From IMG/VR virus record IMGVR_UViG_3300026980_000004: 64,000 nucleotides of DNA. One strand, written 5' to 3'. Under the pieces are notes generated by a model. It saw nothing but the letters and a program-made list of their open reading frames with translations, was not told the origin of the DNA and did not search any database. This DNA is from a virus. Taxonomy: Duplodnaviria; Heunggongvirae; Uroviricota; Caudoviricetes. Of this stretch, positions 1,532 to 46,568 are shown piece after piece (position 1 is the stretch's first letter; each line of letters starts with the position of its first letter). The position numbers and the translations under genes are program-made.

Positions 1532-1537
1532 AACATT

Positions 1538-3122: not shown

Positions 3123-3165
3123 AAAACCAATATATTAATTTATATTGGTTTTTTTATTTTTTAAA
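3123..3165 (+). terminator. rho-independent terminator (AAAACCAATATA...TATATTGGTTTTT hairpin plus T-run)
   Basis: Inverted repeat followed by TTTTTATTTTTT. Confidence 0.6.
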
Positions 3166-3204
3166 CTTAATAGTATTTATAATTATAATTTATAAATATT
3201 TAAT

Positions 3205-3900: not shown

Positions 3901-4043
3901 GAATAAAAATATCAAAAAAATTACTAATAAATATGTTAAAATATAACGATTTTAAAATAAAATAATATAAAAAATATATAATTATATATTTTTTATTAAA
4001 AACATAGTATTTATAATTAAATTTTAGTATAAAAAAAATTAAA

Positions 4044-5258: not shown

Positions 5259-5294
5259 AAATTAAAAAAATTAAACTTATTAAAAAAATAAATT

Positions 5295-6947: not shown

Positions 6948-6967
6948 TCATTGATTAAAATAATATA

Positions 6968-6996
6968 AAGAGGGGCTTTTTAGCCCCTTTTTTTTG
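6968..6996 (+). terminator. rho-independent terminator after capsid gene (GGGGCTTTTTAGCCCC plus T-run)
   Basis: Perfect 6-bp GC stem followed by TTTTTTTTG. Confidence 0.8.
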
Positions 6997-7027
6997 TTTA
7001 TATATTTTTTTATTTTATCTTTGTCAC

Positions 7028-8977
7028 ATGAAAGAGAAATTTGAAATAGATATTGAGTACGCAAAGGAATTGTACGATAATGGTACTTCCATGCGTAAAA
7101 TTGCTAAGATTTTAGAATGTAGTTTAACTAAAGTTCAAAAAGAATTAAATTCTTATAATTTTAATTTAAATAATCCATATAAAGAAGTTGACGGTAAAAA
7201 TTTAATTGCAATTTGTAAAAAAACTGGTAAAGAATTTTTTGATTATGATAATAGAAGTGGATCAATTACAACACATTTATTAGAATTATTTCCAGACTTA
7301 GAAATTCCCTCACATTACAAAAGAAAGGATATATTATATAAAACTTTTAAATATTGGTATCATAATTATTTTAATTTCGAATATAGAGATATAAAAAAAA
7401 CTGTAAAATGTAAATATTGTGAATGGGAAACAGAGGATATTAATAATCTATCGGGTGCGTATATGAATCATATGATAAATACACATGATATTGACATTGA
7501 TAAATATTTAAATGAATATCCTAATGATAAAATATTTTTTAAAAATTATGTGAGAAAAATTGAAAGAAATGAATTTTTAGACGATAAAGATAATCATGTT
7601 GAATGTAAAATATGTGGTGAAAGATTAAAAAAAATAACACAATCTCATTTAGATAATCATAATATCACACTATTTGAATATAAGAAAAAATACAAATTGT
7701 ATAATCCTAAAGATTATATTTCGAAAACATCACACGATATAATATTGGTGAATAGAAAAGAAAATTTCTTTCCAAAAAAAATACATAAAAGATCAAAAGG
7801 GGAGAATGAAATAATAAAATTTTTAAATTTTCATAATATTAAAACAATACCTAATGAGAGAAATTTATTAGATGGGTTCGAATTGGATATTTACCTACCA
7901 GAATATAAAATAGGTATTGAATTTAATGGAGTGTATTTCCATTCTGAATATACAGGAAAAAAGGATATTGAATATCATAAATCAAAAACAAATATATTAG
8001 AATCGAAGGGTATAAAATTAATTCATATATTTGATGTTAATTATGAAAAATGTACGAAAAAAATAAATAGGATGTTATTAGATTTTATTGGAATTAATTT
8101 AATTAAAATTAATACTGATAATAATATTGTAAACTATATTGATGAAAATAAAAAGAATGAATTTATCAGAAATAATACAATTAATGTAATTGACAAATCC
8201 GAATATTGTATATCTACAATAATAAATGAGAAAATATTTTCAATATTATGTTTTGATTATATTGAAAATAAAATCAAAATAAATAATTATATATGTAAAA
8301 TCGGATATAGAATAGAAGATGATCATATTTTAATGTTTGAATCAATCAAAACAAAATTTAAATTCGATCAAATTATTGGTTATTATAATAAATTATGGAA
8401 TGATTTTGATGGTAATTTTTTCGAAAAGTTGGGTTTTAAAAAAAATAAAAATATTGATCCTGATTTTTATTATATTAAATATAATGGAATCGATAAGAAT
8501 ATGTTGATTAATAAAAACTTTTATACTAAAGAATATTTAAAAGAAAGATTTAAAGATATTTATTCTGATATTCTTTCGGTTGATGAATTATTCAATAAAG
8601 CTGGTTATGATAAGATTTGGGATAGTGGGTCTATTGAATATCTTTTATATTCCGAAAATGATAATAATATATATAAATTAAATTTAAATAAACCAATTAA
8701 TAGAAAAAATACAATTAACCCACCAAAATATAAGGAAATTATTAATAATAAAAATAAAAAACCAAGTAAGAAGGTAGTTTTATTAGATTGTAATTATAAT
8801 TTTATTAGAATTTATAATTCAATAAAAGATTGTTCAAATCATATGGGTTATACATTTCATCAGGTTTATGAAAGATTAAGAGGTAAATATAAAAATAATT
8901 TACCACATAAATTTGTTTATTTGAAGGATTATAATGGTATATATGATCTAAAAAAAGATTTATATAAAATTTCTTGA
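7028..8977 (+). CDS. homing-endonuclease-like protein: multiple C2H2/C4 zinc fingers, endonuclease-like core, C-terminal NUMOD-like DNA-binding motif
   Basis: Cys/His pairs. Endonuclease-fold-like segment GENEIIKFLN...LLDGFELDIYLPEYKIGIEFNGVYFHS. C-terminal IRIYNSIKDCSNHMGYTFHQVYERLRGK resembles NUMOD/IENR helix motifs. Confidence 0.45.
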   Translation: MKEKFEIDIEYAKELYDNGTSMRKIAKILECSLTKVQKELNSYNFNLNNPYKEVDGKNLIAICKKTGKEFFDYDNRSGSITTHLLELFPDLEIPSHYKRKDILYKTFKYWYHNYFNFEYRDIKKTVKCKYCEWETEDINNLSGAYMNHMINTHDIDIDKYLNEYPNDKIFFKNYVRKIERNEFLDDKDNHVECKICGERLKKITQSHLDNHNITLFEYKKKYKLYNPKDYISKTSHDIILVNRKENFFPKKIHKRSKGENEIIKFLNFHNIKTIPNERNLLDGFELDIYLPEYKIGIEFNGVYFHSEYTGKKDIEYHKSKTNILESKGIKLIHIFDVNYEKCTKKINRMLLDFIGINLIKINTDNNIVNYIDENKKNEFIRNNTINVIDKSEYCISTIINEKIFSILCFDYIENKIKINNYICKIGYRIEDDHILMFESIKTKFKFDQIIGYYNKLWNDFDGNFFEKLGFKKNKNIDPDFYYIKYNGIDKNMLINKNFYTKEYLKERFKDIYSDILSVDELFNKAGYDKIWDSGSIEYLLYSENDNNIYKLNLNKPINRKNTINPPKYKEIINNKNKKPSKKVVLLDCNYNFIRIYNSIKDCSNHMGYTFHQVYERLRGKYKNNLPHKFVYLKDYNGIYDLKKDLYKIS

Positions 8978-9029
8978 AAGTTGTTTTTAACACTATTTTT
9001 TATAAATTTGTAAAAAAATAATAAATTAC

Positions 9030-10058
9030 ATGGAAAATACAGCACATCAATACAAGATTAGATTAAAAAAACAGGAAGAAGAACAGGATAGTTTACCGTT
9101 TAATTTATGTGATATTGAACTAAAAAATACAACATTAAAGTTAATTTCAAAGAAAGAAGCAGAAAATATTATAATTAAATACGAATGGTTAAAAAAAATG
9201 CCAGGTTTTAGCAAATATTTCTTTGGTTTATTTTTTAATATTAACGGTAATGAATATTTGGGTGGTGTTTTGGTATATGGTCCAGAATACGGTTCTAATA
9301 CAAATGTTTGGTATAAATATGGTTTTAATGATAAGATTTTATTACTTTCTAGAGGTGTATGTCTATGGTGGACACCAAAAAATACCGCTAGTTATTTTAT
9401 TTCAAGGGCAAATAAATGGATAAAAGGAAATACACAGTACAGAATTATAACAGCAACAATAGATCCTATGGCTGGAGAATTTGGAACAATTTATCAATCC
9501 TTAAATTGGTATTATGTTGGTTTGATGGGAGGTAATTATAGTAAGGGTGGTAGAGAGGTTAAAAGGATGAGTATTATTATTGGTGGGAAGCAATATAGTA
9601 CAAGATATATAAGAAAAAAATATGGTACAATGAAAAAAGAGGAAATTCTTAAAATACATCCTGATGCTATTTATGTACCACAATATAGAAAAAGAAGATA
9701 TTTTTATTTTATGGATACAAAAATGAATAATAAAAAATATTATGAAGCGATAAAAGATATGATTCAAGAATATCCTAAAAGAAAGGAAGATGATGCATTT
9801 GGTGTTATTTATATGCTGAAAAATAAAACTAACGATAAAAAATATATTGGTTGTACATATAAAAGTTTCTATGAAGAGTATTTAAATTATATGAATTTAA
9901 ATAAAGAAGAAATTGAAAATAAAGAACTATATAATGATATTTTTAAACATGGTTTTGATGAATTTGAAATGAAATTACTCAAAACAGAACAAGGAGATAA
10001 AAAAATAAAAGAAACTATTAATCTTTTACTAGAAGAATATAACGGAATAAAAATATGA
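9030..10058 (+). CDS. two-domain protein: uncharacterised N-terminal domain plus C-terminal GIY-YIG nuclease domain
   Basis: GVIYMLKNKTNDKKYIG has GIY-(10 aa)-YIG spacing. N-terminal domain carries ATIDPMAGEFGTIYQSLNWYYVG. Confidence 0.5.
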   Translation: MENTAHQYKIRLKKQEEEQDSLPFNLCDIELKNTTLKLISKKEAENIIIKYEWLKKMPGFSKYFFGLFFNINGNEYLGGVLVYGPEYGSNTNVWYKYGFNDKILLLSRGVCLWWTPKNTASYFISRANKWIKGNTQYRIITATIDPMAGEFGTIYQSLNWYYVGLMGGNYSKGGREVKRMSIIIGGKQYSTRYIRKKYGTMKKEEILKIHPDAIYVPQYRKRRYFYFMDTKMNNKKYYEAIKDMIQEYPKRKEDDAFGVIYMLKNKTNDKKYIGCTYKSFYEEYLNYMNLNKEEIENKELYNDIFKHGFDEFEMKLLKTEQGDKKIKETINLLLEEYNGIKI

Positions 10059-10678
10059 TAATATATTCTAGGTATGATTTTAATAGACAAGCAATTCTGA
10101 GTGGTTTAAATAATGAAAATTATACGGGAATTGTTATTGATAGGTATATAAAAGATAGAAAATTATTAACACAAGAAGAATATTATAAAATTGAGAATCT
10201 TAAATATGATGATACATTTTATCAAAATTTAATGTTTAGTGTGACAAATAGAAAAGAAATTGTTGATAATATTTTTGGTATTGGAACTGCGAAAATGTGC
10301 AGAATATTAAATAATTTATCTAGAACATATGAAGATGCTATTGTTTTAAAAAATTTATATAATTTAGAAAAACTAAAAATGGATGGTCATTTATCTGGTT
10401 ATTTTAGAAAAAGGAAATTGAGACAGGTAATGGACATTTTTGATAATTTAATTAAATCAAAAAAAGTTAGAATTACGGAAAACAAACATAAGGTTATACA
10501 ATCAAGTGAATATTTGATTTATTATGAAGATTATATTTTTTGTTGTCATTCTAATTTACCATATGATTTTTTTGAAAAATACGATGAAAATCATAAATGG
10601 TTATATTTGTATAATATATCTAATATGAGTAAATTATTGGATTTAATTGACCATAAATTTGGTAAATATATGAAATAA
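10055..10678 (+). CDS. hypothetical protein
   Basis: 207-aa ORF overlapping the upstream stop by 4 nt (translational coupling). Confidence 0.45.
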   Translation: MIIYSRYDFNRQAILSGLNNENYTGIVIDRYIKDRKLLTQEEYYKIENLKYDDTFYQNLMFSVTNRKEIVDNIFGIGTAKMCRILNNLSRTYEDAIVLKNLYNLEKLKMDGHLSGYFRKRKLRQVMDIFDNLIKSKKVRITENKHKVIQSSEYLIYYEDYIFCCHSNLPYDFFEKYDENHKWLYLYNISNMSKLLDLIDHKFGKYMK

Positions 10679-10694
10679 TGTTTATCTTTGTTAC

Positions 10695-20190: not shown

Positions 20191-20278
20191 ATATCAATAA
20201 AATAAAGGTACTTTCCGAGTGGATTAATCCCTCAGATTAAGGCTGCACAACCAGCCTAATTGCACTTTCTGCAATCCT
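20191..20278. ncRNA. 88-nt conserved element, copy 2, abutting and overlapping the stop codon of the Cas12/TnpB-like gene
   Basis: Identical to copy 1 over 88 nt. Located exactly where a TnpB right-end/omega-RNA scaffold or a Cas12f tracrRNA would lie. Confidence 0.45.
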
Positions 20279-21668
20279 ATTTTTTAAATTCGGTACTTAA
20301 TGAAATATTTTTTGCTCCGTTAAAATCGGCATGTATTTCTTTTCCAAAGATACTACATTTTTCATTAAGACAAGTAAATATTTGTTTATTTCTTGCAGTT
20401 TTTTCAATATTTCCACATTTATGACATTTTTGTGATGTATAAGCTGGATTTATTTTTCTTACAACAATATTATGTTTTTTTGCTTTATACATTATTTTTT
20501 CTTGGATACCATAATATCCCCAGATTCTCATAATATATTTTTTATTTTCCGTCAAATTCTCTTTATAATTCTCTAAATTTTCAATATTAATATATTTACA
20601 ATTATTATTTAGTGCCTCTTTAATAACGGAATTTGATATTTTGTGTTGTTCGGTGTTAGTCCAGTTTTTTTCAACTTTTTTTAATTTATCTAAAGCAGAT
20701 AATTTCTTTTTTCTACCTCTACCACCATTCGATATTTCCAGATTTTTAATTAATGATGTATATCTTTTTTTATATTGTAATTTATGTGAATCAAAGTGAT
20801 GAATATCACCTATTTGTTTTTTATAATAATCATTATCATTAATTGCAAGATAAACAGGTGCGTTCACCCCCAAGTCAACACCTAAAACTTTATTATCATC
20901 TAATTTTATTGTGTTATCCAATGGTTGTTTAAATGATAATAATAGAAATATTTTTTTATCTTTAAATTGTATGGCGGAATCACACAATTTATATTTATCG
21001 GTATCATTAATAATATGTTCAATAATTGCTTTATTATTTGATCTATCAGGACCAAAAAATAAACCAAAATTATAACCGAATAAATTTATATAATACTTAC
21101 CATTATCAAACTTAAAAAATAAACTAGGGTCTTTCACTAATTTACCGCTAATATTAAATGGAATAGGTAAACCTCTTTTATATATATTTAATGTTGATTT
21201 TCCAAGAAAATATTCCTTTTCTTTGATTTTATAATCATTTTCAATCTTTTTAGATAAAGATGCACTAATACTGGATAAACCTTTGGGTAATCGTTTGTTT
21301 ATATTATGATATACTAATGTAGTCTCTTTTGAATCATTATATATCATTTTTTTATATTCTTCATTATTCGAATATTTATTAATAATATCTCTATTTTGAT
21401 TCTTTAGTTCAATAAATTCAGTGGATTTAAAATTTTTAATTTCTGACATCTTATTGAGATTATTCACATATTTCTCATAATCTTCTTTATTGTGTTTTAG
21501 GATAAACTCGGGTAAGTTTTTCTTGATATGTAAATAATTAACACTGTCGTTAGCAATTTTATATAGATTATTATTTAAATAATGAAGTAAGTCGTAACAC
21601 TCATTTTTTTTATTACCTTCTTCATTAACAAATAATTCTATTTTTCTGGTTAATGTAATTTGTTCCAT
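20277..21668 (-). CDS. compact RuvC-type RNA-guided nuclease candidate (TnpB/Cas12f-like, 463 aa)
   Basis: RuvC-I GVDLGVNAPVYLAIND. RuvC-II YINIENL. Zn ribbon CHKCGN...CLNEKC. RuvC-III IHADFNGAKNISL. Adjacent to CRISPR array 2. Confidence 0.75.
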   Translation of the reverse strand: MEQITLTRKIELFVNEEGNKKNECYDLLHYLNNNLYKIANDSVNYLHIKKNLPEFILKHNKEDYEKYVNNLNKMSEIKNFKSTEFIELKNQNRDIINKYSNNEEYKKMIYNDSKETTLVYHNINKRLPKGLSSISASLSKKIENDYKIKEKEYFLGKSTLNIYKRGLPIPFNISGKLVKDPSLFFKFDNGKYYINLFGYNFGLFFGPDRSNNKAIIEHIINDTDKYKLCDSAIQFKDKKIFLLLSFKQPLDNTIKLDDNKVLGVDLGVNAPVYLAINDNDYYKKQIGDIHHFDSHKLQYKKRYTSLIKNLEISNGGRGRKKKLSALDKLKKVEKNWTNTEQHKISNSVIKEALNNNCKYINIENLENYKENLTENKKYIMRIWGYYGIQEKIMYKAKKHNIVVRKINPAYTSQKCHKCGNIEKTARNKQIFTCLNEKCSIFGKEIHADFNGAKNISLSTEFKK

Positions 21669-21674
21669 TTTATT

Positions 21675-21944
21675 TTAATTAACTTTTTTAACTTCAAGAA
21701 TTTCAAAACTTCTTACTCCACAAATTTGTTTACTATATAAATCTCTAATACATCCATTTTTAAAATAATTTTTTATGTTATCGTGTCTGGTTGTAAAGTA
21801 TTCAATAGATATATCACCATTTTGATAATATAATTTTACTTTATTTCTGTGTCTTTCACTATCTGAAATCGTACCTAAAATTAACATACCTATAAAGCAA
21901 ATTAATCCAAAAGCAGCGAATAAATTACTAAATGTTATTTTCAT
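21675..21944 (-). CDS. small secreted/membrane protein, hypothetical
   Basis: 89-aa ORF with N-terminal TM/signal segment. Confidence 0.35.
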   Translation of the reverse strand: MKITFSNLFAAFGLICFIGMLILGTISDSERHRNKVKLYYQNGDISIEYFTTRHDNIKNYFKNGCIRDLYSKQICGVRSFEILEVKKVN

Positions 21945-21945
21945 T

Positions 21946-22230
21946 TTATTTTAATTTAAACTGATTGTATATTTCTTCTGCCGTAAAGTAAGGACAAAAT
22001 TCTTTAAAATCCAAATGAAAATGTGATTTAAATTCATTTTTATTGACCCAATCACCATTATTTAATCTAAAATAATATGTTGATGTGTTTAGATTGATAT
22101 TAGACTTAAATTCATTATTTGGATTATTCGCCATATCACCAGACCAAAGATCAATGTGACCTTCTTTACAGTGAAATCTAAAAAATTTATACCAATTTTC
22201 TTTTAAGGTAACATATTTTATATTCACCAT
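21946..22230 (-). CDS. hypothetical protein
   Basis: 94-aa ORF, tightly packed. Confidence 0.35.
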   Translation of the reverse strand: MVNIKYVTLKENWYKFFRFHCKEGHIDLWSGDMANNPNNEFKSNINLNTSTYYFRLNNGDWVNKNEFKSHFHLDFKEFCPYFTAEEIYNQFKLK

Positions 22231-22491
22231 TTATTTTTTAATTTGTTCATATCCACAATCATCTAAAAATCCTTGTCCAACTGGACTTCCAAGCCATTGA
22301 ATTAATGTTAAACAAATATCTTCTTCGGTTTCGGTTAGATATTTGTTTGGATATTTTTGATATTTATCTTCCCAACCAAAAATAATTGCGGATAATGTGG
22401 TATTATCGTTTTCGAATTTTCCTTTGAATTTATCATGAAAAATCTTTTCCATTTCGTTAGTTTCAAATCTATATTCTTTGTTTGATTTCAT
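22231..22491 (-). CDS. hypothetical protein
   Basis: 86-aa ORF. Confidence 0.35.
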   Translation of the reverse strand: MKSNKEYRFETNEMEKIFHDKFKGKFENDNTTLSAIIFGWEDKYQKYPNKYLTETEEDICLTLIQWLGSPVGQGFLDDCGYEQIKK

Positions 22492-22754
22492 AATTCCTCT
22501 ATTTTAATTTTTAAATCACCATTACCTTTAATTATCCTATGATATTTAAGTTTAGGTATGAAAATTGTTTGATTATTAACTAATTTGAATGGTAATTCAT
22601 CATCAAATTGAAATGACCATCCAGAAGCCTGTATTACAGTCATTTTACGATCCTTTTCATCATAATGCCATACTAGGTCATATTTAGATGTGGATACCTT
22701 AAAAGTCCTTAAAAAGGTGTTTTCTGATAAGTCATTTTGATTGAAAATTTCCAT
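22488..22754 (-). CDS. hypothetical protein
   Basis: 88-aa ORF. Confidence 0.35.
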   Translation of the reverse strand: MEIFNQNDLSENTFLRTFKVSTSKYDLVWHYDEKDRKMTVIQASGWSFQFDDELPFKLVNNQTIFIPKLKYHRIIKGNGDLKIKIEEL

Positions 22755-22791
22755 GAGACAAAAATATGGAAATTTTTCGATTTAAAAAATA

Positions 22792-23922
22792 TTATTGTAA
22801 ACCTTTTAAAGTTTCTAAAACCCAAACGGGTGGATCATCTTCCGAATATTTTGGTGCTAATACAGAACCTTTAACATAATAGGCAATTTCAGCAACATCA
22901 TTTATTTCAACATCACCTATTTTATCTTTTATATTATTATAATCATCCCATGCACTTGTCCCTTTTTCTATTAAATTAAATAAAAATGTTCTAATAGTTT
23001 TATTTTTAATTTTTTTAATTTCATCCATTTTAATTAATTTATTTTTGGATTCAACATATGCTTTATAGTCAAAATTGAATAAATCATCTAAAACTTTTCT
23101 CATTTTATAACCATCATTTGTTAATGATGATCTTTCCAATTTTTCATATCCATATTTTTTTGCTAAATAAATCATTAAAATTTTACCATATCCTTTGCCT
23201 TTAACCAGACTTTTTATGATCGTGATATTTATTTCATTATTATAAATTCTGTAACGAACTTCCGCTAATGGTTTATTTTCATTTTTTTTATATAAAGTTG
23301 CGATATAATTATCTTGACCATAATAATAATCTATATGGTAATCTTTTACATCATAATCATCCAATATTTTATAAATGTTCGATTTATCTACTTTTGAAAA
23401 ATCCTCATTTAAGTTATTTACTTGATTAAATATACATCTATGGAATTCGTCATAACTTAAATATGGTGCTAATTCCTTAATTGGATTTATTTTTATATTT
23501 AAATTAACATTTAATTCTTTATTTAATATTTTAGCTGCAGTATATCTATGATGTCCATCTTGTATATAAAATCCTCTTTTACCGTTAATTTCTTTAAAAT
23601 CAACATCAATTGGTTCAGTTAAATCTATATTAGATGCCCATTGCTTTGGTGTTAATTTACTATGTTTAATTTCATATTTTACATTTTCAATATCATCCTT
23701 CCATTCTATTTTTAATAAAATTGGGTTTATTTTTTTTATTTCAATCTCATTAAATCCAAATGCCAATTTATCCAAGATATCGATATCAATTCCACCAGAT
23801 CTTAATAAATCTTCAGATGATTTAAATTTTTTTACAAAATCAATAACATCTTGATTTAGTTTTATTGTCGGACACTTACTGTTTTCAATTTCCTCTTTTA
23901 TTATTTTAATTATATTCATCAA
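22792..23922 (-). CDS. ParB-like nuclease domain fused to GNAT acetyltransferase-like domain; IIKEE-leader family
   Basis: YIQDGHHRYTAAKIL (ParB/Srx GxHR motif) and GKGYGKILMIYLAKKYG (GNAT motif). N-terminus MMNIIKIIKEE. Confidence 0.5.
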   Translation of the reverse strand: MMNIIKIIKEEIENSKCPTIKLNQDVIDFVKKFKSSEDLLRSGGIDIDILDKLAFGFNEIEIKKINPILLKIEWKDDIENVKYEIKHSKLTPKQWASNIDLTEPIDVDFKEINGKRGFYIQDGHHRYTAAKILNKELNVNLNIKINPIKELAPYLSYDEFHRCIFNQVNNLNEDFSKVDKSNIYKILDDYDVKDYHIDYYYGQDNYIATLYKKNENKPLAEVRYRIYNNEINITIIKSLVKGKGYGKILMIYLAKKYGYEKLERSSLTNDGYKMRKVLDDLFNFDYKAYVESKNKLIKMDEIKKIKNKTIRTFLFNLIEKGTSAWDDYNNIKDKIGDVEINDVAEIAYYVKGSVLAPKYSEDDPPVWVLETLKGLQ

Positions 23923-24800
23923 TGTAAAACTTTTCTATATTGATCATAATTATTTACAACCCAAAATACGACAGTTTCTAAATCATCATTTTCAAATAAT
24001 AGATTATAATTTTTTTGATTAAAAACTCCCCATTTCTCATTTTCACCTTCAGTTATTGGTATAAAATTCGTTGCGGTATTACCATAAAATATTACTTGTG
24101 ATTCATTATCACCATAATGCCAGACTTTTATACCAGATGCTCTAAACAAAATAACTTCATTACCATATTTATATCCAGATTTAGTCCAATTACCATAAGA
24201 TGATGCACCATATTTCTCAAAATCGTTAAGAGTATATGCAAAATTATAACCACCATATTTTTTTTCAAATTCACCCAATTGTGTTGTTAAACCAAGTTTA
24301 TCCATTTCATCGACACCATATTTAAAACCATTATTTGCAATTGATTCAGCATCTTTAGTAAAATGTACTAACCATTGATTTTTAATTAATTGTGGACTGA
24401 CATCAAAAAATGACCATGCTGGATATTCGGAATCTGGGATATCAAGTGTATTATTTGTTATTTTATCGTATAAATAATCGGCAAACTCATTATACAGTTC
24501 TTTATTATTTGATTCCAACCAAAAAATAAATTCAATATCATTATCATCAAACATGTCTACTTCCTCATCAGGTTCATCCTTATATAAACTTGGTTGGGTT
24601 TCTTTTGGCATTTCAAAATCGGTATCAGTTTCTATTAAAAAATCATTAAAAAAATAATAATATTCGTGCGGTAAATATTCCTTTTTCCGTTCCTCTGACA
24701 TCGATAAATAATCTTTTAAATATATCTCATTATTTGTGATATATTCTTTTATTAAATTATATTCTTCTTTAATTATTTTAAGTATTTTCATTTTCTTCAT
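23919..24800 (-). CDS. hypothetical protein, IIKEE-leader family (MKILKIIKEEYNLIKEY)
   Basis: 293-aa ORF whose N-terminal 20 aa are near-identical to the first residues of the window's opening reading frame. Confidence 0.45.
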   Translation of the reverse strand: MKKMKILKIIKEEYNLIKEYITNNEIYLKDYLSMSEERKKEYLPHEYYYFFNDFLIETDTDFEMPKETQPSLYKDEPDEEVDMFDDNDIEFIFWLESNNKELYNEFADYLYDKITNNTLDIPDSEYPAWSFFDVSPQLIKNQWLVHFTKDAESIANNGFKYGVDEMDKLGLTTQLGEFEKKYGGYNFAYTLNDFEKYGASSYGNWTKSGYKYGNEVILFRASGIKVWHYGDNESQVIFYGNTATNFIPITEGENEKWGVFNQKNYNLLFENDDLETVVFWVVNNYDQYRKVLH

Positions 24801-25287
24801 ATATTTTATAATGGTTCATTAATTGATTTTCATCACTAAAATATTGTATATTATCTTCATCTGGTGTATAATTTACCATTTCTCTACCTTTAATAATCAA
24901 TCCATCATAACCTAATTTTTTCATTTCTTCTTCCATTGATGTATTCTGTTCAAAAAAACTAAGACTATAACTCTTTCCATTTTTTTTACAAAAATCTTCA
25001 ATTAATTTTTGTCTTAGTAATTCAGCTTCATTTAACGAATAAACAATTTTAGGTTTTTGGGGTATAGCATTTACTACAAAATGAACATCACCATATTGTT
25101 TTGCCATTGCTTTATTACTCAATGGTACTGTGTATAAACCTTTACCAAATGAACCATAAACTTCATTTGGTTTTCCCAATTCTTTTATACCTCTTAATGT
25201 AACATTTTGACGCTTCCATTTATTATATTTTCTTTTCCATTCATTATAGTTATATGCTTCTTCTTTAATTATTTTTATTATATCCAT
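24778..25287 (-). CDS. hypothetical protein, IIKEE-leader family (MDIIKIIKEE)
   Basis: 169-aa ORF. Confidence 0.45.
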   Translation of the reverse strand: MDIIKIIKEEAYNYNEWKRKYNKWKRQNVTLRGIKELGKPNEVYGSFGKGLYTVPLSNKAMAKQYGDVHFVVNAIPQKPKIVYSLNEAELLRQKLIEDFCKKNGKSYSLSFFEQNTSMEEEMKKLGYDGLIIKGREMVNYTPDEDNIQYFSDENQLMNHYKIYEENENT

Positions 25288-26441
25288 TATAGTTCTTTTA
25301 TTAAATTTTTAAGATCATTCATTGCCTGTTTACTGTTATCATATTTAACAATACTCCCACCAGCATTTTTAAATAAAGACGTATATTTGATTCTATCATC
25401 AATTAATATATCGTTTTTACTTCTAACGACACTATCTTTTTTTGTTGTAATAACAACATCATTTACCAATTCACCAAAATTATCATCAACCCATCTTTTT
25501 TTATCAATCACTGATTGGTTATTAGGATCATCTTCATTACCAACTGGTGCAGATAGAATATTTGGTTTATTACCTGTTAATTTATTTGCAAGTTTTAAAA
25601 ACTCAATTGAATCTGGCATTAAATCCAATTTATAAAAGAAATTATCTCTACCAGCAACTTTAAATACCTTATTCGTATAATTTCTATATAATTTTTTTAA
25701 TTTCCTTGCAGATTCGTTATTAGGGTCTTTTTCCAATAAATCATTTATATATATTTTTAATTCATCAGTAGGTAGATTTATAATATCTGGATAATTCTCT
25801 TTAACATATTCATCAAATACGTTTTTTTCTTTTTGGTATTCCTCATTTTTATTTAGACCACCCTCCATATCTGCGAGCACACCATCTAAATCAAACCAAA
25901 TTTGAATATCATTAGAATTTGTCATATTAAAATCATCTTTTGTTATATTACCAATCGAACCAAACGGATTTCCATCTTTGTTATTTGCGATTGTAATATA
26001 GAAATATCTATCTGGTTCTGGATTTGATTTACCAATCATATTATAAATCTCATCCACAAATTTTCTTAATTCATCTTGATTTTTAACGGCAACAACAAAC
26101 GATTCTTTATCTTGCTCAGGTCTTTTACCGATAGTTGTATCACCCAAAACGATATTAGGAATTTGCATATTACTAAAATCAATAGATTCAAAATCATCCT
26201 TAAATGGTTTAAAACTCCTGATACTCGTTAATGTAACGTGTAGATTTTTACTGTCTAATTTTGTTAAATTATTTGGTATATTAATTTTATTAATATTATT
26301 AATTGTTGATTCATCCAACTTTAATAATAACCCAGTCCCATGTATAATTCTTTTATTAGGATCTACATTTTCTTTGATTAATAACTTCGTTCCACAAAGT
26401 TTATCAAACATTTCAAATAATTTAGTTTTATTATTGTTCAT
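25287..26441 (-). CDS. protein with C-terminal HAD-family 5'(3')-deoxyribonucleotidase-like domain; N-terminal KLFEMFDKLCGTKLL leader
   Basis: WFDLDGVLADME (HAD DxDGVLxD motif). N-terminal leader shared with ORF 2671-3099. Confidence 0.5.
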   Translation of the reverse strand: MNNNKTKLFEMFDKLCGTKLLIKENVDPNKRIIHGTGLLLKLDESTINNINKINIPNNLTKLDSKNLHVTLTSIRSFKPFKDDFESIDFSNMQIPNIVLGDTTIGKRPEQDKESFVVAVKNQDELRKFVDEIYNMIGKSNPEPDRYFYITIANNKDGNPFGSIGNITKDDFNMTNSNDIQIWFDLDGVLADMEGGLNKNEEYQKEKNVFDEYVKENYPDIINLPTDELKIYINDLLEKDPNNESARKLKKLYRNYTNKVFKVAGRDNFFYKLDLMPDSIEFLKLANKLTGNKPNILSAPVGNEDDPNNQSVIDKKRWVDDNFGELVNDVVITTKKDSVVRSKNDILIDDRIKYTSLFKNAGGSIVKYDNSKQAMNDLKNLIKEL

Positions 26442-26453
26442 AATTTTTTTTAT

Positions 26454-26993
26454 TTACCAAACAGCAGATGATGATAATCCCATCACATCTGAATAATATT
26501 TAGGTGCATAACATGCCCACCATCCTGGGGTGTCTCTGTCTTTCTTTTCAGAACATTTATGTCTCGCTCTAAAGGATTTTGCAGCTTCTGGATCACCATT
26601 TCTAATTGGTAGATTTGGATCACCAAAATATATAATTTTAGCAACTGTCTTACCGTCTTTATTTTTTCTACCTGTTGATCTATAAACCTTCCATGCCTTT
26701 TTCTTATTTTCTGTGGCTCTCATGGGTTTATCCAACGTTACTGATTTACCTTTATGTATACCTTTTCTACCTGTATCTGTTTTTTCGAAAATAAATTTAT
26801 CATTTTCATTTTGAAAATCGATGTAACCATTATCATATAAATTTCTAGCTTCGAAAAGTAGGTCATCAAATGATTTAGATTCTAATCTAAATACAGATTC
26901 AGTGATTGGTATATTATTTTTAATATGATATTGTAAATTTTCTGATGCCGTTAAATTTACAAATTCCTCTTTAATTAAATTATATATATTCAT
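26454..26993 (-). CDS. hypothetical basic protein, IIKEE-leader family (MNIYNLIKEE)
   Basis: 179-aa ORF. Confidence 0.4.
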   Translation of the reverse strand: MNIYNLIKEEFVNLTASENLQYHIKNNIPITESVFRLESKSFDDLLFEARNLYDNGYIDFQNENDKFIFEKTDTGRKGIHKGKSVTLDKPMRATENKKKAWKVYRSTGRKNKDGKTVAKIIYFGDPNLPIRNGDPEAAKSFRARHKCSEKKDRDTPGWWACYAPKYYSDVMGLSSSAVW

Positions 26994-27000
26994 TGTTTTT

Positions 27001-28080
27001 TTATTTAAAATTTAATATTTCATAAGCAGATTCTATATTACCAAAAATATTGGTTAATATTTCATCAGCTTCAAATAATTCAACAGGATCATTAAAATGA
27101 TTAAACATATAGGTATTTTGTTCATCATAATCTTCTTCATCATCAAAATATTCGCTTTCAACATCTTCAAACATTTTTGGTGGTTTAATCACTGTATATG
27201 AAAATCCCTCTTCATCAGTTTCGTAATAAAAATCAAATATGATATATACAAATCCGTTATAAGCGTATTTGTTAAATTCTTTTGTATTATCATTCCCATA
27301 AGTAAAACACCATAAAGAATTACATCCAATTTTTTTTAAATCTTCTGGATTACTAATTTTTATTATTAAATTATGTTTTTTATTAAATACAATACTAGAA
27401 TTAATTGAATTATTTTTTACTAGTTTAATGATATCTTCTTTTTTTATTTTATCTGAACTTAATAAATTTTCTTTATTATCAAAAAAATCTACGATATTAG
27501 ATATAGTATTATTTGATTTAAATGCCTTGTTTAAAATTTTATTTCTTATTTTATCATCCCTATTATTTAATTTATCAATCTGTTCATCCAATTCAGTTAT
27601 TAACACGACAAATAAATTAAATTCTGTGAAATTTCTCTCTAATCTTATATCATTTCTAATATTTCTTATTGCAGTTGATGGTATTTTTTTAAAAAAATTT
27701 ATTATATATTTTCGATAAAAAAGATATTGAATTAATTGATTAATTTCTTTTTGGGGTGTTTTATATATATTTAAATTTTTTAATGGTAATATATTTTTAT
27801 TATAATTTTTTAATTCATTATAAATATCATTCAAACTAAAATTACCATATAATGATTTATATACCGAATAATTCTCTTTTATATAAAAATATATATCCGA
27901 GATTATTTTTGTATAATGATCACCATTTGTTATTTTAAGAATATATTCTTTATCTTCTTTTGATAATAAACCTTTATTAAAGTATTCTTTATCTGCTAAT
28001 TGTAGGTTTTCAATTATAAGTTCTTCTTTTATAATTTTTATTAGATTATTCATATCTATCCAAATACATTTGTAAATCAT
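27001..28080 (-). CDS. hypothetical protein, IIKEE-leader family (MNNLIKIIKEE; true start probably at the internal Met)
   Basis: 359-aa ORF. Confidence 0.4.
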   Translation of the reverse strand: MIYKCIWIDMNNLIKIIKEELIIENLQLADKEYFNKGLLSKEDKEYILKITNGDHYTKIISDIYFYIKENYSVYKSLYGNFSLNDIYNELKNYNKNILPLKNLNIYKTPQKEINQLIQYLFYRKYIINFFKKIPSTAIRNIRNDIRLERNFTEFNLFVVLITELDEQIDKLNNRDDKIRNKILNKAFKSNNTISNIVDFFDNKENLLSSDKIKKEDIIKLVKNNSINSSIVFNKKHNLIIKISNPEDLKKIGCNSLWCFTYGNDNTKEFNKYAYNGFVYIIFDFYYETDEEGFSYTVIKPPKMFEDVESEYFDDEEDYDEQNTYMFNHFNDPVELFEADEILTNIFGNIESAYEILNFK

Positions 28081-28636
28081 TATAGCATTTTTGAGTTATT
28101 CCATTTTTAAAACCATCCTCAATAAAATACTCATTAACTTCATCAAAATCATCACCTTTAAATTGTAACAAGAGTGGTTTAATTTCATTACTTGATAATT
28201 CAATAAATTTAATTACAGGTATTAATTTACAACCAATTTTCTTTGCAGCCATTGCTCTATGCCTACCTTCTTGGGATGGTTTATTATTAACAAAATATGG
28301 TACAGGAAATTTATCACCATCCAACATATTCTGTGCATATTTATTAATTAATTCTTCATGTGTTGGTTGTAATGCATCATCATATGAAATTCCAAAACCT
28401 CTCGCAACATTATAAATGTACTGATCTGGTTTCATGTATTCTAATTTTGCTGTTCTTCTTTTATTAATAATTGAATATAAAGGCATATAAAATTCAACAT
28501 ATTGATCATATATTGAATCGATATCGAAATATTTATTGCATTCAATATCCTCTAATTCTTCCTTTATTATTTTTAATATATTCATTTTATTTAACATAAT
28601 CCTTGATTTCATCTTTAAAATCATTGAATTTATCAT
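28046..28636 (-). CDS. ParB-like nuclease domain protein, IIKEE-leader family (true start likely MNILKIIKEE at about 28546)
   Basis: SQEGRHRAMAAKKIG ParB/Srx motif. Confidence 0.5.
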   Translation of the reverse strand: MINSMILKMKSRIMLNKMNILKIIKEELEDIECNKYFDIDSIYDQYVEFYMPLYSIINKRRTAKLEYMKPDQYIYNVARGFGISYDDALQPTHEELINKYAQNMLDGDKFPVPYFVNNKPSQEGRHRAMAAKKIGCKLIPVIKFIELSSNEIKPLLLQFKGDDFDEVNEYFIEDGFKNGITQKCYNDLQMYLDRYE

Positions 28637-29456
28637 TAATATTCATCGCAATAGAATCCAAATCATCAAATAATCGATATAATAAATCGACAATATTTTC
28701 ACATTTTATTAATAAACTGTCCAGTATCTCAAAGTTCATATCATCTTCAAATTCTTCAGATAATCTATTACCAGTACGGATGTCTTCCTTTATTAATTCA
28801 ATGATTTCAATTATATTTTTTATTGATGATAAATCTAACCTTCTCTCTTCTGGTAAATTTACAACTAAATTGGATAAACCAACTAATTTACTCAATATAT
28901 TATCATTTATTAAAGATATTAATTCATTGATATTATCAATATTATTTAAATTGACAGAATCATATTTAAATTGTTCTTTAATTATTGATTTATATTCTTC
29001 TTTAATTAAATCATTATAATTATTAATCACCTTTAAAATTTTTATTTGTTTTGAATCAAGTGCAATGACCTCACCGATGTTACCCATTATATCTAATAAA
29101 ACAACACCATCATATCCATTCCTTTTTAACTTATCAAAATCTTCTTTATCAATAAAGTTAGCACTTTTAATAAATCTATCTTTTCTATCTAAATAATGAA
29201 AATCATTTTCAAAATAATACGGATTTTTAATATTAACATTACAAACATAAACATTTCCACCCTCAGCATAATCATATGCCTCACGTTTATTTGGTGTAAA
29301 ATAAAAACCATAATTATCATCACGTAAGAACCTTTTTTTTGATTGATCAAAACTTTTAAAAATCTTAGGTTCAGTCCTTTTTCCTTTTTCATCCCATTTG
29401 GGTGGTTGACCATGATAAAGAATTTTAGGTATCGCTGGATATTTTTTATTATTCAT
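28587..29456 (-). CDS. hypothetical protein
   Basis: 289-aa ORF overlapping its downstream neighbour. Confidence 0.4.
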   Translation of the reverse strand: MNNKKYPAIPKILYHGQPPKWDEKGKRTEPKIFKSFDQSKKRFLRDDNYGFYFTPNKREAYDYAEGGNVYVCNVNIKNPYYFENDFHYLDRKDRFIKSANFIDKEDFDKLKRNGYDGVVLLDIMGNIGEVIALDSKQIKILKVINNYNDLIKEEYKSIIKEQFKYDSVNLNNIDNINELISLINDNILSKLVGLSNLVVNLPEERRLDLSSIKNIIEIIELIKEDIRTGNRLSEEFEDDMNFEILDSLLIKCENIVDLLYRLFDDLDSIAMNINDKFNDFKDEIKDYVK

Positions 29457-29521
29457 AATAATAATATTAAAATTAAGTATACATATAAATACAAAAGTAT
29501 TTATATTTAAATAAAATACAT

Positions 29522-30097
29522 ATGGATAATCTTAAAAAAATAATCAGAGAAATTATAAAAGAAGGTGATAGAGAACATACTTATTACATGTTTTTCCAGA
29601 ATATTAAACAAATTAAAAGACAATGCGAAGAAATTCTAGAGATGGATAGACACAATGTTGATAATGTTTTAAAATCTGGACATGATTGGGCATCTGATCA
29701 TATATCAACTTCAAAAGATGATGTCGAAGAAGTATATAATTTTTTAAAAGAAAAATGTAAAAAGGATACGGTTGTTACTGATATTGATGATATAATTGAA
29801 TCTACTGAAAATAGGTTAACAGATGATGAAATTATTAAATTAGGTCATGAAATATTCGAAAAATATATGTACTCAGATAAAGATATTAAAAGAAAAGTGA
29901 AAGATGATTGGTCTAACGATGGTTTAAGCAGATTTGGTCAATTCACTAATAATAAATTATCTAATTTATTATCAGTAAAAGATAATAGAACAAGACAAAT
30001 GAAAATTCATGAAATTGTGGATCAATTAGAAATTTTAAAAGATTACATTAAAGATAATTCTATCGATATCTTAATAAAATCATTACTAATAAGATAA
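29522..30097 (+). CDS. hypothetical protein, IIKEE-like leader (MDNLKKIIREIIKEG)
   Basis: ORF preceded by AAGTATTTATATTT. Confidence 0.45.
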   Translation: MDNLKKIIREIIKEGDREHTYYMFFQNIKQIKRQCEEILEMDRHNVDNVLKSGHDWASDHISTSKDDVEEVYNFLKEKCKKDTVVTDIDDIIESTENRLTDDEIIKLGHEIFEKYMYSDKDIKRKVKDDWSNDGLSRFGQFTNNKLSNLLSVKDNRTRQMKIHEIVDQLEILKDYIKDNSIDILIKSLLIR

Positions 30098-30231
30098 TAT
30101 TATTTCACGATTTAAAAATCCAATAATAAACTCATATTCACCATTTAATGTTTTATCATGGGTTATTTTAATGAATGGAAATAAATATATTTGACCAAAT
30201 ATTTTAGATATTGTAATTTTCATATATATTA

Positions 30232-30681
30232 TTATATTAATTGTTCTCTATAACTTAATAACTTGTATAGGTTTTGTAATTGATGGACATGACTTATACA
30301 AGTTATATATTTATTATTAATTGAAACATCATAACTAGTATCATCTTCAGATATAACACCAATATTTTCAGCATCAATATCTTGATCTTCTTTTTCTAAT
30401 AAAAACCAATCATGAAGTATCCATTCTTTGTGAATATAAACGATATCTGTAATTGATTTTTTTACACTCTCAATACATTCAAATTTAAAATAATTTAACC
30501 AATAATCATTTATTATTATTGGTCTAACATCATTTAAAACAATAGACTCAGAATCGTTAATTCTTGGATAGAACATTATCCACTCATCATTTTCATCTAT
30601 GAATGATATTTCTTTAACTTGTACAATTGAACCACAGGGTAATTGGACATAATTATTAATCATTAAATCTCTTGCATCCAT
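30232..30681 (-). CDS. hypothetical protein
   Basis: 149-aa ORF. Confidence 0.4.
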   Translation of the reverse strand: MDARDLMINNYVQLPCGSIVQVKEISFIDENDEWIMFYPRINDSESIVLNDVRPIIINDYWLNYFKFECIESVKKSITDIVYIHKEWILHDWFLLEKEDQDIDAENIGVISEDDTSYDVSINNKYITCISHVHQLQNLYKLLSYREQLI

Positions 30682-44087: not shown

Positions 44088-46568
44088 TTATTTGATTTTA
44101 ATTGTTAATTCTTCTGAATTTTTTAAATATTTAATTTCAATTAGATTACCTTCTTTTATATTTCCCTTAATAATCTCATCTGATATAGGATCTTCGATAT
44201 ATTTTTGAATTGCTCTGTTTAATGGTCTTGCACCATATATTTGATTATAACCTCTTTCTATTAGAAAATTATATGCGGTGTCAAATATTTTAATTTTATA
44301 ACCCAAGTTATTTAATTTATTAATCAAATTCTCGATATTTAATTTAATGACTCTTTTAATATCTTCTTTTGATAAATTATTAAAAGTAACAATATTATCG
44401 ATTCGATTTATAAATTCGGGTGGTAATGATTTTTGAAGTTCTTTTTCAATTATTTGTTTATTAATTTCATTTTGATTATCAACATCTGTCTTTGTCGAAA
44501 AACCAATCCCATTGCCAAATGTTTGAATTTTTCTAACACCAATATTTGATGTCATAATAATAATGGTATTTTTAAAATTAATTGTTCTACCCAAGCCATC
44601 TGTTAATATACCATCATCAAATACTTGTAATAACAAATTAAATACATCTGGATGTGCCTTTTCAATTTCATCTAATAAAATAACTGAATATGGTTTTCTT
44701 CTAACCTTTTCTGTTAGTTGACCACCCTGCTCATGTCCAACATAACCAGGAGGCGAACCGATTAGTCTACTAACATTAAATGATTCCATATATTCAGACA
44801 TATCAATTCTAATAAAAGAATCTTTAGTTCCGAATAGATATTCTGCAAGCTCTTTTGTTAAATGTGTCTTACCCACACCTGATGAACCCAAAAATAAAAA
44901 AACACCATTTGGTTTTGATTCATTTTGTAAACCAACCCTATTTCTCTTAATAGCTTTTACAATATCATCAACTGCATGTTCTTGTCCGATAACTTTACTA
45001 TTTAAAACATCGTTCATTTTTAATAGTCTATTATTATCATTTTCGGATAGTTTTTTTACGGGTACACCAGTTATCGATGTAATAACATCACCAACATCGT
45101 CTAATGATACATCAAATCTATCATTTTTTGTATCTCTTTCCCATTTTTCTTTTATTTTATTTAAATCCTTTAGTAGTTTTTTTTCTTTATCTCTTAGACC
45201 AACAGCCTTTTCATATTCTTGAGTTTTAACTACCTTTATTTTCTCACTTTTAATATTTTCAATTTCAGTTTCAATTTTAACAATATCTTCTGGTATTGTT
45301 TGGTTGTTAATATAAACCCTTGAACCAACCTCATCAAATATATCGACAGCTTTATCTGGAAAAAATCTATCAGTTATAAATCTATTAGATAATTTAACAC
45401 AAGCCTCAATAACCTCATCTGAATATCTTACTTTATGAAACTCTTCATAAACAGGTTTGATTTGTTTTAAAATATTTATTGTTTCATCAACTGTAGTCTC
45501 TTCAACCATAACAGTTTGAAATCTTCTCGTTAATGCACTATCTTTTTCAATATTTTCCCTATATTCATTCAATGTTGTTGCACCAATACATTGCATTTCA
45601 CCATTAGCCAATGCGGGTTTAATCATATTTGATGCATCCAATGAACCAGATGCTCCACCAGCACCTATAATCGTATGTAGTTCATCGATAAATAAAATAA
45701 TATCTGGATTATCAACCAATTCAGACATAATCCCTTTCAATCTTTCTTCAAATTGACCTCTATATTTTGTACCTGCAACAAGTAAACCCAAATCCAAACT
45801 AACAATTCTTTTATCATGTAATTTTCTTGATACCTTCTTTTCTTTTATTTTCTGTGCTAGTAAATTAATAATATTTGATTTACCAACACCTGGTTCTCCA
45901 ATTAATAATGGATTTCTTTTAGTTCTTCTAGATAATATTTGTGATAATCTTTTTACTTCTTTATCTCTACCAATGACAGGATCTAATTTACCCTCCTCAG
46001 CCATTTTAGATAAATCCCTACTAAAATTATCTAAAATCGGTGTTTTTGATTTTGTATTAGTATTTTTTTTATTATTTGAATTCGTATTACCGAATATTGT
46101 ATCACCATCATCATCGTTTGTATACATATTACTCTCTATATTTATATTTGAATATTCGTCTTTAATAAAATCGTGGATTTTTATGTAAAATAAATCATTT
46201 TTGTTTAAAACGGTTTTAATATCAGAATCACTTCTGAGTAAAGATAATAAAAGATGTTCAACTTCAACAGTTCTTAGACCAAAACTTTTGGCCTCTTTAT
46301 AACTTTCAACTAATACCTGATTATACTTATCCGATATTTTAAATGTGGGGTCGGTATTATTAAATTTACCACTAAATAATAATTTTAAAATCTCTGTTTT
46401 AATCTTTTCATTATCAATTTTAAAATATTCCAATATTTCTGACATGAAATTATTTCTAAATAATGATAATGATAAATGTTCTAAACAAACAATTGTATGT
46501 GAGTTTGTTGTTGCGATTCTTTTTGAATCGTTAATAATGTCTTTAATTTCTGATGAAAGATCGATCAT
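44088..46568 (-). CDS. Clp/Hsp100-family double-AAA+ ATPase (ClpC/ClpB-like)
   Basis: Clp_N-like repeats. Walker A GEPGVGKS (AAA-1) and GSSGVGKT (AAA-2). Sensor/arginine-finger contexts present. Confidence 0.8.
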   Translation of the reverse strand: MIDLSSEIKDIINDSKRIATTNSHTIVCLEHLSLSLFRNNFMSEILEYFKIDNEKIKTEILKLLFSGKFNNTDPTFKISDKYNQVLVESYKEAKSFGLRTVEVEHLLLSLLRSDSDIKTVLNKNDLFYIKIHDFIKDEYSNINIESNMYTNDDDGDTIFGNTNSNNKKNTNTKSKTPILDNFSRDLSKMAEEGKLDPVIGRDKEVKRLSQILSRRTKRNPLLIGEPGVGKSNIINLLAQKIKEKKVSRKLHDKRIVSLDLGLLVAGTKYRGQFEERLKGIMSELVDNPDIILFIDELHTIIGAGGASGSLDASNMIKPALANGEMQCIGATTLNEYRENIEKDSALTRRFQTVMVEETTVDETINILKQIKPVYEEFHKVRYSDEVIEACVKLSNRFITDRFFPDKAVDIFDEVGSRVYINNQTIPEDIVKIETEIENIKSEKIKVVKTQEYEKAVGLRDKEKKLLKDLNKIKEKWERDTKNDRFDVSLDDVGDVITSITGVPVKKLSENDNNRLLKMNDVLNSKVIGQEHAVDDIVKAIKRNRVGLQNESKPNGVFLFLGSSGVGKTHLTKELAEYLFGTKDSFIRIDMSEYMESFNVSRLIGSPPGYVGHEQGGQLTEKVRRKPYSVILLDEIEKAHPDVFNLLLQVFDDGILTDGLGRTINFKNTIIIMTSNIGVRKIQTFGNGIGFSTKTDVDNQNEINKQIIEKELQKSLPPEFINRIDNIVTFNNLSKEDIKRVIKLNIENLINKLNNLGYKIKIFDTAYNFLIERGYNQIYGARPLNRAIQKYIEDPISDEIIKGNIKEGNLIEIKYLKNSEELTIKIK

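Follow-up and report, generated by a model that had tools for sequence, protein, structure and literature searches.

Why do about ten otherwise unrelated proteins of one phage begin with the same ten residues? This question is raised by a stretch of 64,000 nucleotides from IMG/VR virus record IMGVR_UViG_3300026980_000004 (the window), which belongs to an uncultured T4-type jumbo phage known from a ~266-kb metagenomic contig (source contig L004). The window has a G+C content of ~25%, and Ile, Lys, Asn and Glu are abundant in its proteins. An earlier note on this DNA had described a set of paralogous genes sharing the N-terminal leader MNIIKIIKEE, and had proposed that this leader is a capsid-targeting and processing signal. 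We find that the leader is an N-terminal tag on proteins of different families, that related phages have tags of their own, and that leader genes and head genes have a promoter-like motif in common. The explanation that we favor, with a probability of roughly 60%, is that the leader is a propeptide of the same type as the capsid-targeting sequence (CTS) of phage T4, which would both direct proteins into the prohead and be processed there.

A leader shared by otherwise unrelated proteins

The leader (leader 1) has the consensus M-x-I-(I/L)-K-I-I-K-E-E and begins seven open reading frames (ORFs) of the window, the CCA-adding enzyme at the window's start and one gene upstream of it, the count covering the 64-kb window together with the adjoining upstream stretch of the source contig (genes are lettered as in Table 1). 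Of its ten residues, those at positions 4 and 7 are hydrophobic and those at 9 and 10 are Glu; as the earlier note had pointed out, the leader contains I-K-E (residues 7-9), which at the level of sequence is of the (L/I)-x-E type. That the leader is common to these N-termini is borne out by pattern matching, shuffling, profile scoring and pairwise comparison. In a six-frame translation of the window the pattern [ILVM]K[ILV]IKEE matches five times, each time directly after the Met of a minus-strand ORF (starts at 23919, 24791, 25287, 28053 and 28585), whereas composition-preserving shuffles of the 88 predicted proteins average 0.0105 matches and never exceed 1. A position-specific scoring matrix of the leader places seven N-termini, including those at 26993 (MNIYNLIKEE) and 13257 (MEFIRKIIKEE), at 23.6-28.7 and the best remaining site of the window at 13.4, a separation that is partly circular because the matrix was made from the same copies that were scored. 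When the first 40 residues of the 88 proteins are compared all against all, pairs of leader proteins reach 30-45, above the 99th percentile of the whole set (28).

The description of these genes as paralogous was wrong, BLAST similarity among the leader proteins being confined to residues 1-22. What follows the leader falls into different families, as the earlier note had stated. Its membership list needs some revision: the ORFs beginning at 22792, 23919, 24778, 26454, 27001, 28046 and 12721 and the CCA-adding enzyme all stand, whereas the ORF at 29522-30097 is divergent and has only a weak match, and to the list must be added an internal copy in 28587-29456, the upstream gene at L004 7504-8709 and a second class of leader. 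The true start codons are most likely the Met codons immediately before the leader, at 23919, 24791, 28053 and 28585 rather than at the 23922, 24800, 28080 and 28636 called previously. Starts at the leader Met give tight or overlapping gene junctions, and the ATG of gene A overlaps the stop codon of gene B.

The cargo proteins carried behind the leader are 169-405 residues long and have one or two domains each, of the types ADP-ribosyltransferase (ART; ART-PolyVal or ART-like), ParB-like, GNAT, nucleotidase (HAD) and CCA-adding, with D, E and I lacking an assigned function. The GNAT-like C-terminus of gene A is a reading of the sequence without a library match, and the ParB assignment of gene F likewise comes from the motif alone, with no library match. 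The cargo domain of gene B recurs inside a 1697-residue multidomain protein of another phage (L006) and also at L007 9335-10813. Gene J matches the Pfam families PolyA_pol, PolyA_pol_RNAbd and tRNA_NucTran2_2, its N-terminus being taken from the source contig (L004 8759-9976). Gene G carries the leader internally, as NNYNDLIKEE at ~28995-29024 (about residues 145-154). In relatives its C-terminal half is a separate protein of 144 residues that starts MNIYKIIKEE (P0121, P0122; 63% identity). Because this half stands alone with an N-terminal leader in relatives, gene G is a fusion of an ART-PolyVal domain to a former leader gene whose old N-terminus has been kept.

Separately, we considered and rejected a recent DNA repeat as the source of the leader: only ~30 nucleotides are alike, there are synonymous differences between the copies, and the upstream DNA within the operon is unrelated.

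A promoter-like motif common to leader genes and head genes

The motif (T)AGTATTTATA lies, in the correct orientation, 12-50 nucleotides upstream of the core-like gene at 1872, the protease gene, the scaffold-like gene and a gp13-like neck gene. Further copies stand before leader genes K, I and H and before the gene at 13344, and the first gene of the G-to-A operon has a variant with one mismatch. Its core, TATTTATA, is found in relatives before the genes for protease and scaffold and before nearly all genes whose products carry MELRKFIATTIREYLNE, the leader of a clade described below. On the opposite strand this core reads as the T4 late promoter TATAAATA. Sigma-70-like sites show no enrichment (81 found, 89.6 expected), and no terminator-like sites were found within 21500-30500. 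The comparison supports a link between the leader operon and the head genes through a common promoter-like motif, both here and in relatives.

The head genes in question include the gp21 homolog to which the earlier note had referred, a Peptidase_S77 protein encoded at 3205-3900. It has G-I-L-I-E near its N-terminus, and LIE is conserved in relatives; T4 gp21 has an autocleavage-type motif, LIE-9 (PMC9026906). The scaffold-like gene occupies the position of T4 gp22. For the gp23-type capsid protein, maturation is predicted at ..SYMINE(60)↓STD (the arrow marking the cut), ~18 residues before a conserved FETVAFPIIRRVF block, and M[IL]NE↓S is kept in the capsid proteins of 11 relatives. We take this site to be equivalent to the cleavage of T4 gp23 after residue 65. 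The T4 gp23 propeptide is 65 residues long (PMC9958956). Identity to relatives is 77% for the capsid protein, 56% for the protease and 35-42% for the scaffold, which to judge from these values diverges much faster than the other two.

The end of the leader recurs more widely in the same set of genes. The 88 proteins contain 14 matches to [IVL][IVL]KE[EN], where shuffles give 1.43 on average and 7 at most. Every match is in a gene that belongs to the head module (the scaffold gene included), carries a leader or is linked to the promoter-like motif; the remaining genes have none. A second class of leader (leader 2, KLFE.FDKLCGTKLL(I)KE) is common to 2671-3099 and 25287-26441, which with a score of 54 are the top N-terminal pair in the window.

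Lineage-specific leaders on exchangeable cargo

Gene C has 415 homologs, among which the domain is 69% identical and the first ~20 residues 23%; some homologs are without any leader. The neighbors of C homologs show that each genome has a common leader of its own: of the MELRKFIATTIREYLNE type on at least eight genes in L009, MKDSRKLLATIAKGYLNE in L010, and MDFKKIIKEELELLNE and related forms in L011. The first of these is widespread. Searched with a DNA pattern for TTIREYLNE, IMG/VR yields 69 stretches on ~65 contigs, whose lengths range over 11-501 kb and whose G+C contents over 25-39%, and MELRKFIATTIREYLNE is N-terminal in 71 of 71 IMG/VR occurrences, 8-9 residues past the start Met. It is borne by 40 BLAST-distinct cargo clusters, including ART-PolyVal and GNAT enzymes. 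A Pfam search with representatives of these 40 found no family common to all, and therefore no library model covers the leader. Two contigs whose capsid proteins are 77-78% identical to that of the window carry the variant MELRK..TTIREYLNE, because of which we consider the phage of the window to be a member of the MELRKFIATTIREYLNE clade with a diverged leader.

What is conserved is the peptide. A contig of 38% G+C (L002) has the identical MNIIKIIKEE with five synonymous changes, and the codons of the MELRKFIATTIREYLNE leader vary synonymously (CGT/AGA, TTG/CTT). Because such synonymous variants encode the same leader, selection evidently acts on the peptide and not on the DNA. The cargo, by contrast, varies among related phages while the tag is kept, as seen in the 40 clusters behind MELRKFIATTIREYLNE and in a contig of 24% G+C (L107). 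There the operon has the same borders as in the window (a homolog of H with back-to-back promoter motifs, and homologs of A and of 22754), yet its cargo list differs, each member bearing a leader variant. The L107 homolog of gene D begins MQIYNLIKEE, and the homolog of gene E in L077 has MELRKFIATTIREYLNE in place of leader 1. Homologs of the CCA-adding enzyme have no extension, an extension of the leader-1 type or one of the leader-2 type, the last (SYKKRLSELAGTKLLTES) starting some of the stand-alone enzymes; others (P0130, P0132, P0133, P0140 and similar) are proteins of 500-700 residues fused to ParB-like, ART-like or 2H-phosphoesterase/HAD modules, the partners being identified by reading N-terminal sequences.

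In three lineages the end of the leader resembles the lineage's own predicted capsid site. In the window, IKE compares with MINE↓S; in the majority of the clade, ..EYLNE compares with M[IL]NE↓S, so that MELRKFIATTIREYLNE ends in L-N-E, the clade's predicted capsid-site tripeptide. In a distant T4-type phage of 59% G+C (L007), FRSL[VIA]E compares with the aligned YRSLEE↓T. This phage has six consecutive genes with a leader of their own, ..FRSL[VIA]E (span 2005-16477), for three paralogs of 467-624 residues (..DDPDIFISFR..IGINPKS..) and three unrelated proteins. The cluster lies directly upstream of a gp21-like protease gene (29% identity, E = 2e-12) and a Gp23 capsid gene.

Among cultured phages, megablast gave no match to the locus and tblastn none to cargo C. 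The nearest cultured ART-PolyVal homologs, gp156 and gp157 of Tenacibaculum phage pT24, show no clear common leader, and a full-text search of the literature found no occurrence of the leader peptides. As a separate observation, a contig of 23% G+C with a capsid protein 50% identical (L098) encodes, at 1046-5376 just upstream of the protease, three paralogs beginning M(L)N.LQEKSD..IDLE.LNNFLLEKGD, an N-terminus that may be another type of leader.

Proposed capsid targeting and its alternatives

These findings are best explained if the leader is a CTS-type propeptide. Cargo genes would be transcribed from the type of promoter used by the head-assembly genes; the amphipathic N-terminal helix would dock the cargo onto the scaffolding core of the assembling prohead; the gp21-type protease would cut after Glu, at I-K-E↓E; and the freed enzymes inside the capsid would enter the next host along with the DNA. 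Leader and promoter together would form a portable address label, relatives using their own variants of it and swapping cargo genes behind it. Late timing of expression we infer, as we do docking, cleavage, packaging and injection. The types of cargo would suit injected effectors, as seen in the ART-PolyVal and GNAT enzymes, the B domain in the 1697-residue protein and the fusions of CCA-adding enzymes elsewhere, and the locus is plastic in the manner of the T4 internal-protein genes. The earlier note's proposal is thus supported by computation without being proven, and the elements of its argument that could be checked have all held.

A broader picture, which we regard as slightly less likely than not, is that a whole clade of uncultured, AT-rich, jumbo T4-type phages uses a cassette of head-gene promoter and address peptide to load dozens of swappable host-modifying enzymes into the capsid, from which they would be injected with the DNA. 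Among these would be ARTs, acetyltransferases, ParB-type nucleases, nucleotidases and also a CCA-adding enzyme for tRNA. The lineage variants of the peptide would co-evolve with the fast-diverging scaffold, a given cargo could bear one class of leader or another, and the whole would be a split-gene counterpart of the polyvalent proteins and a natural programmable code for protein packaging, far richer than the T4 internal proteins.

Several points weigh against capsid targeting. The (L/I)xE site is low in information, and K, I and E are favored in a genome of 25% G+C. The leader is without sequence homology to the T4 CTS, gene G is without an N-terminal leader, and gene X uses a different one. 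One copy of the promoter-like motif precedes an IS607-like recombinase, and the temporal class of the motif is only inferred. We know of no precedent for a packaged CCA-adding enzyme, and packaging and cleavage are themselves predictions. Predicted structures cut both ways on whether the leader forms part of a folded domain, a possibility that the earlier note had counted against itself. In the AlphaFold2 model of C (predicted local distance difference test score, pLDDT, 91) the leader (pLDDT 93-96) starts a single long helix, which spans residues 3-28 and leads into the conserved domain; because this confidently modeled helix continues into the domain, the leader may be part of the fold of C. 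In the model of the CCA-adding enzyme the leader helix spans residues 3-25, with residues 1-20 at pLDDT 58-72 and the body above 90. As modeled, the helix of C would weaken a reading as propeptide, and that of the CCA-adding enzyme would fit it. A Foldseek search of the PDB with the model of C returned only weak ART and pre-ejectosome matches (best E = 0.068).

The main rival, in our judgment unlikely, is that the leader is a docking helix for a partner other than the prohead core, which might join the separate effectors in one complex or be bound by a chaperone or by the phage's ATP-dependent protease of 826 residues, the proteins acting unpackaged in the producing cell. The leader is an amphipathic helix in the models, a genome-specific leader would fit any co-evolving partner, and an AAA+ protease gene is present in the window. 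This explanation leaves three things unaccounted for: the likeness between leader end and capsid site in three lineages, the promoter motif held in common with head genes, and the position of the L007 leader cluster beside protease and capsid genes.

More improbable still is that conservation is of a cassette at the level of DNA or RNA (promoter, 5' untranslated region and translation start), kept for expression control or recombination in the manner of the PeSL (promoter-early stem-loop) cassettes and with the peptide incidental. A promoter-like motif and the 5' region are indeed conserved together before most MELRKFIATTIREYLNE genes, and cargo is shuffled between relatives, for which the PeSLs are a precedent (PMC2839356). 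Within the operon, however, the peptide is conserved in spite of differing upstream DNA; the coding sequences for identical peptides differ at many synonymous positions; and the high-G+C phage L007 has an analogous peptide on unrelated DNA. The unit of promoter and leader may nevertheless also be a recombination cassette, which is compatible with capsid targeting.

That the genes are true paralogs, the leader being the sole recognizable remnant of a common ancestor or fold, is very improbable. In its favor, the genes are clustered, ParB-like motifs occur in both A and F, and the products of both C and G are ART-like. We rejected paralogy on the limitation of BLAST similarity to residues 1-22; the cargo families differ too (CCA enzyme, ParB-like, ART, HAD or unknown), and the same domains occur with other leaders or none in other phages. 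Finally, origin of the pattern by chance or from the composition of an AT-rich genome (~25% G+C, with abundant Lys, Ile, Asn and Glu, common also at N-termini) is refuted by the shuffle statistics, all five strict matches, where 0.0105 are expected, being N-terminal and the same peptide recurring in the contig of 38% G+C.

Comparison with known systems

The T4 CTS has the sequence MKTYQEFIAE. Its positions 4 and 7 matter for targeting and positions 8 and 10 for processing (PMC9026906). On the internal proteins IPI, IPII and IPIII (Mullaney and Black 1996; PMC9026906, PMC3012670) it is likewise an N-terminal tag of ~10 residues on unrelated proteins of one phage. The two tags also resemble each other in their hydrophobic positions (4 and 7) and in a terminal Glu that fits a gp21-type (L/I)xE site. 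Each belongs to a phage that encodes a protease of the gp21 family along with a scaffold and a gp23-type capsid protein, and each is retained in related phages whose sets of cargo differ. Residue-level similarity is absent, however, the pattern alone being common (length 10, hydrophobic 4/7, Glu 10). The T4 cargo consists of small basic proteins, whereas here it consists of enzymes (ART, ParB-like, GNAT, nucleotidase, CCA). It is encoded by ~10 or more genes in each genome and, behind a single leader variant in the clade, comprises at least 40 families. There are, moreover, at least two leader classes in one genome and a separate variant in each lineage, and the function of the tag here is a putative one.

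A second T4 parallel is Alt, a virion-packaged ADP-ribosyltransferase that the prohead protease trims and the phage injects along with its DNA (PMC5512222, PMC9026906). As with Alt, an ART enzyme would here be made together with the head proteins; the ARTs here belong to the ART-PolyVal family and not to the Alt family, and their packaging is a prediction. Polyvalent proteins (Iyer et al. 2017, PMC5512222) resemble the present system in their ART-PolyVal and ParB-like domains, in the B domain found in the 1697-residue L006 protein and in the delivery with the DNA that is predicted for both. They combine 2-15 domains per chain, whereas here the domains are spread over separate genes that have one short leader in common. 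A search of the paper's text did not find the word 'leader'.

The ejection proteins of phiKZ-like phages and SPN3US (PMC5694885) are similar in that head or ejection proteins are trimmed after Glu by a gp21-related protease, and their propeptides have been proposed to target proteins into the prohead (PMC5694885). Those propeptides are mostly longer than 100 residues and occur on families of paralogs, and are not a short common tag on unrelated domains. The PeSL cassettes of T4-type phages (Arbiol et al. 2010, PMC2839356) share with the present locus the repetition of promoter units before accessory genes, which could drive shuffling. They consist of early sigma-70-type promoters and stem-loop terminators, with no coding part, whereas here the motif is common with head genes, no stem-loop terminators were found and the conserved unit extends into a peptide.

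If the leader does target the capsid, the injected enzymes would include a CCA-adding enzyme, which could repair damaged tRNA ends on arrival. Capsid targeting as known from T4 would extend from a few small coliphage proteins to a clade-wide modular system. The tag would then reveal from sequence alone which proteins environmental giant phages inject with their DNA, something otherwise very hard to learn for uncultured viruses, and the tagged proteins would amount to a catalog of first-strike enzymes for anti-defense and host takeover. It would also provide short peptides, each specific to a lineage, with which foreign proteins could be loaded into phage capsids.

Features of the window and minor observations

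Table 1. Leader genes, head genes and promoter-like motifs (window coordinates unless a contig is named)
Feature	Coordinates	Strand	Description
Gene J	1-1210	+	CCA-adding enzyme; leader cut by window edge; full start MNIINIIKEEYNLIKE
Small head-module protein	1538-1825	+	N-terminal motif 3, KIKLSELKEIVKKVIKEE
Promoter-like motif	1840-1848	+	AGTATTTAT; 31 nt upstream of gene 1872
Head-module (core-like) protein	1872-2690	+	Internal motif 3 (~residues 95-111) and a variant at the C-terminus
Gene directly upstream of protease	2671-3099	+	Leader 2, KLFEAFDKLCGTKLLKEE
Promoter-like motif	3172-3180	+	AGTATTTAT; 32 nt upstream of protease gene
gp21-type prohead protease	3205-3900	+	Peptidase_S77, Pfam PF03420, E = 1.3e-26
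Promoter-like motif	4006-4014	+	AGTATTTAT; 37 nt upstream of scaffold-like gene
Acidic scaffold-like protein	4044-5258	+	Between protease and capsid genes; contains AIKEE, FLKEE, LIKEN
gp23-type major capsid protein	5295-6947	+	Pfam Gp23 (PF07068), E = 1.1e-72, match from residue 68
Protein with two internal repeats	11977-12711	-	NESTKPKTQKIKLSEVRQLVRKMLKE(E/A), variants of motif 3
Gene I	12721-13257	-	MEFIRKIIKEE (codons 13225-13257); cargo matches phrog_8582
Back-to-back motif pair	13265-13302		13265-13273 (-) for gene I; 13294-13302 (+) for gene 13344
460-residue protein	13344-14726	+	N-terminus AFFERMRELAAVNKQIIKES resembles leader 2; weak assignment
Gene A	22792-23919	-	MNIIKIIKEE (23890-23919), then ParB-like DGHHRY domain and GNAT-like C-terminus; phrog_1033
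Gene B	23919-24791	-	Starts MKILKIIKEEYNLIKE
Gene C	24778-25287	-	MDIIKIIKEE, then conserved ART-like domain (415 homologs, AlphaFold2, Foldseek)
Gene X	25287-26441	-	Leader 2, KLFEMFDKLCGTKLLIKEN, and NT5C/HAD nucleotidase domain; mid-operon, without leader 1
Gene D	26454-26993	-	MNIYNLIKEE; cargo matches phrog_7595
Gene E	27001-28053	-	MNNLIKIIKEE; cargo without assigned function
Gene F	28046-28585	-	MNILKIIKEE, then ParB-like motif QEGRHRAMAAKKIG
Gene G	28587-29456	-	First in operon; ART-PolyVal domain, residues 10-140 (Pfam PF18760, E = 7.4e-11)
Back-to-back motif pair	29484-29506		TTGTATTTATA (-) for G-to-A operon; AGTATTTATA (+) for gene H
Gene H	29522-30097	+	Divergent from operon; N-terminus MDNLKKIIREIIKEG, weak leader match
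Gene K	L004 7504-8709		Just upstream of window; GTG start; begins like gene J; GNAT-containing domain

A third motif (KIKLSELKEIVKKVIKEE) stands at the start of 1538-1825, inside 1872-2690 and twice inside 11977-12711. In the last of these the duplicated NESTKPKTQKIKLSEVRQLVRKMLKE separates two modules, an arrangement like that of a polyprotein with repeated linker or cleavage motifs.

Two CCA-type nucleotidyltransferases and a Thg1-like tRNA-His guanylyltransferase (1-1210, 17136-17942 and 18494-19726) form a theme of tRNA repair in the window, in which no tRNA genes were found; only the first of the two nucleotidyltransferases bears the leader. The 826-residue ATP-dependent protease, encoded at 44088-46568 on the minus strand, matches phrog_4871 (E = 1e-254) and might be what reads the N-terminal tags instead. 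An IS607-like pair (serine recombinase and TnpB-like transposase) lies at 47082-48827 and a second TnpB-like gene at 20277-21668, both on the minus strand, the IS607-like pair being the one preceded by the promoter-like motif.

In one relative (L096, 6552-8459) the ORF at the position of the protease has 635 residues, as against ~235 in other relatives, which suggests an insertion or fusion in the protease gene. In the window, the capsid gene is directly followed by an HNH/homing-endonuclease-like ORF of 649 residues (7028-8977) and then by a gene for a Mom-family protein (9030-10058).

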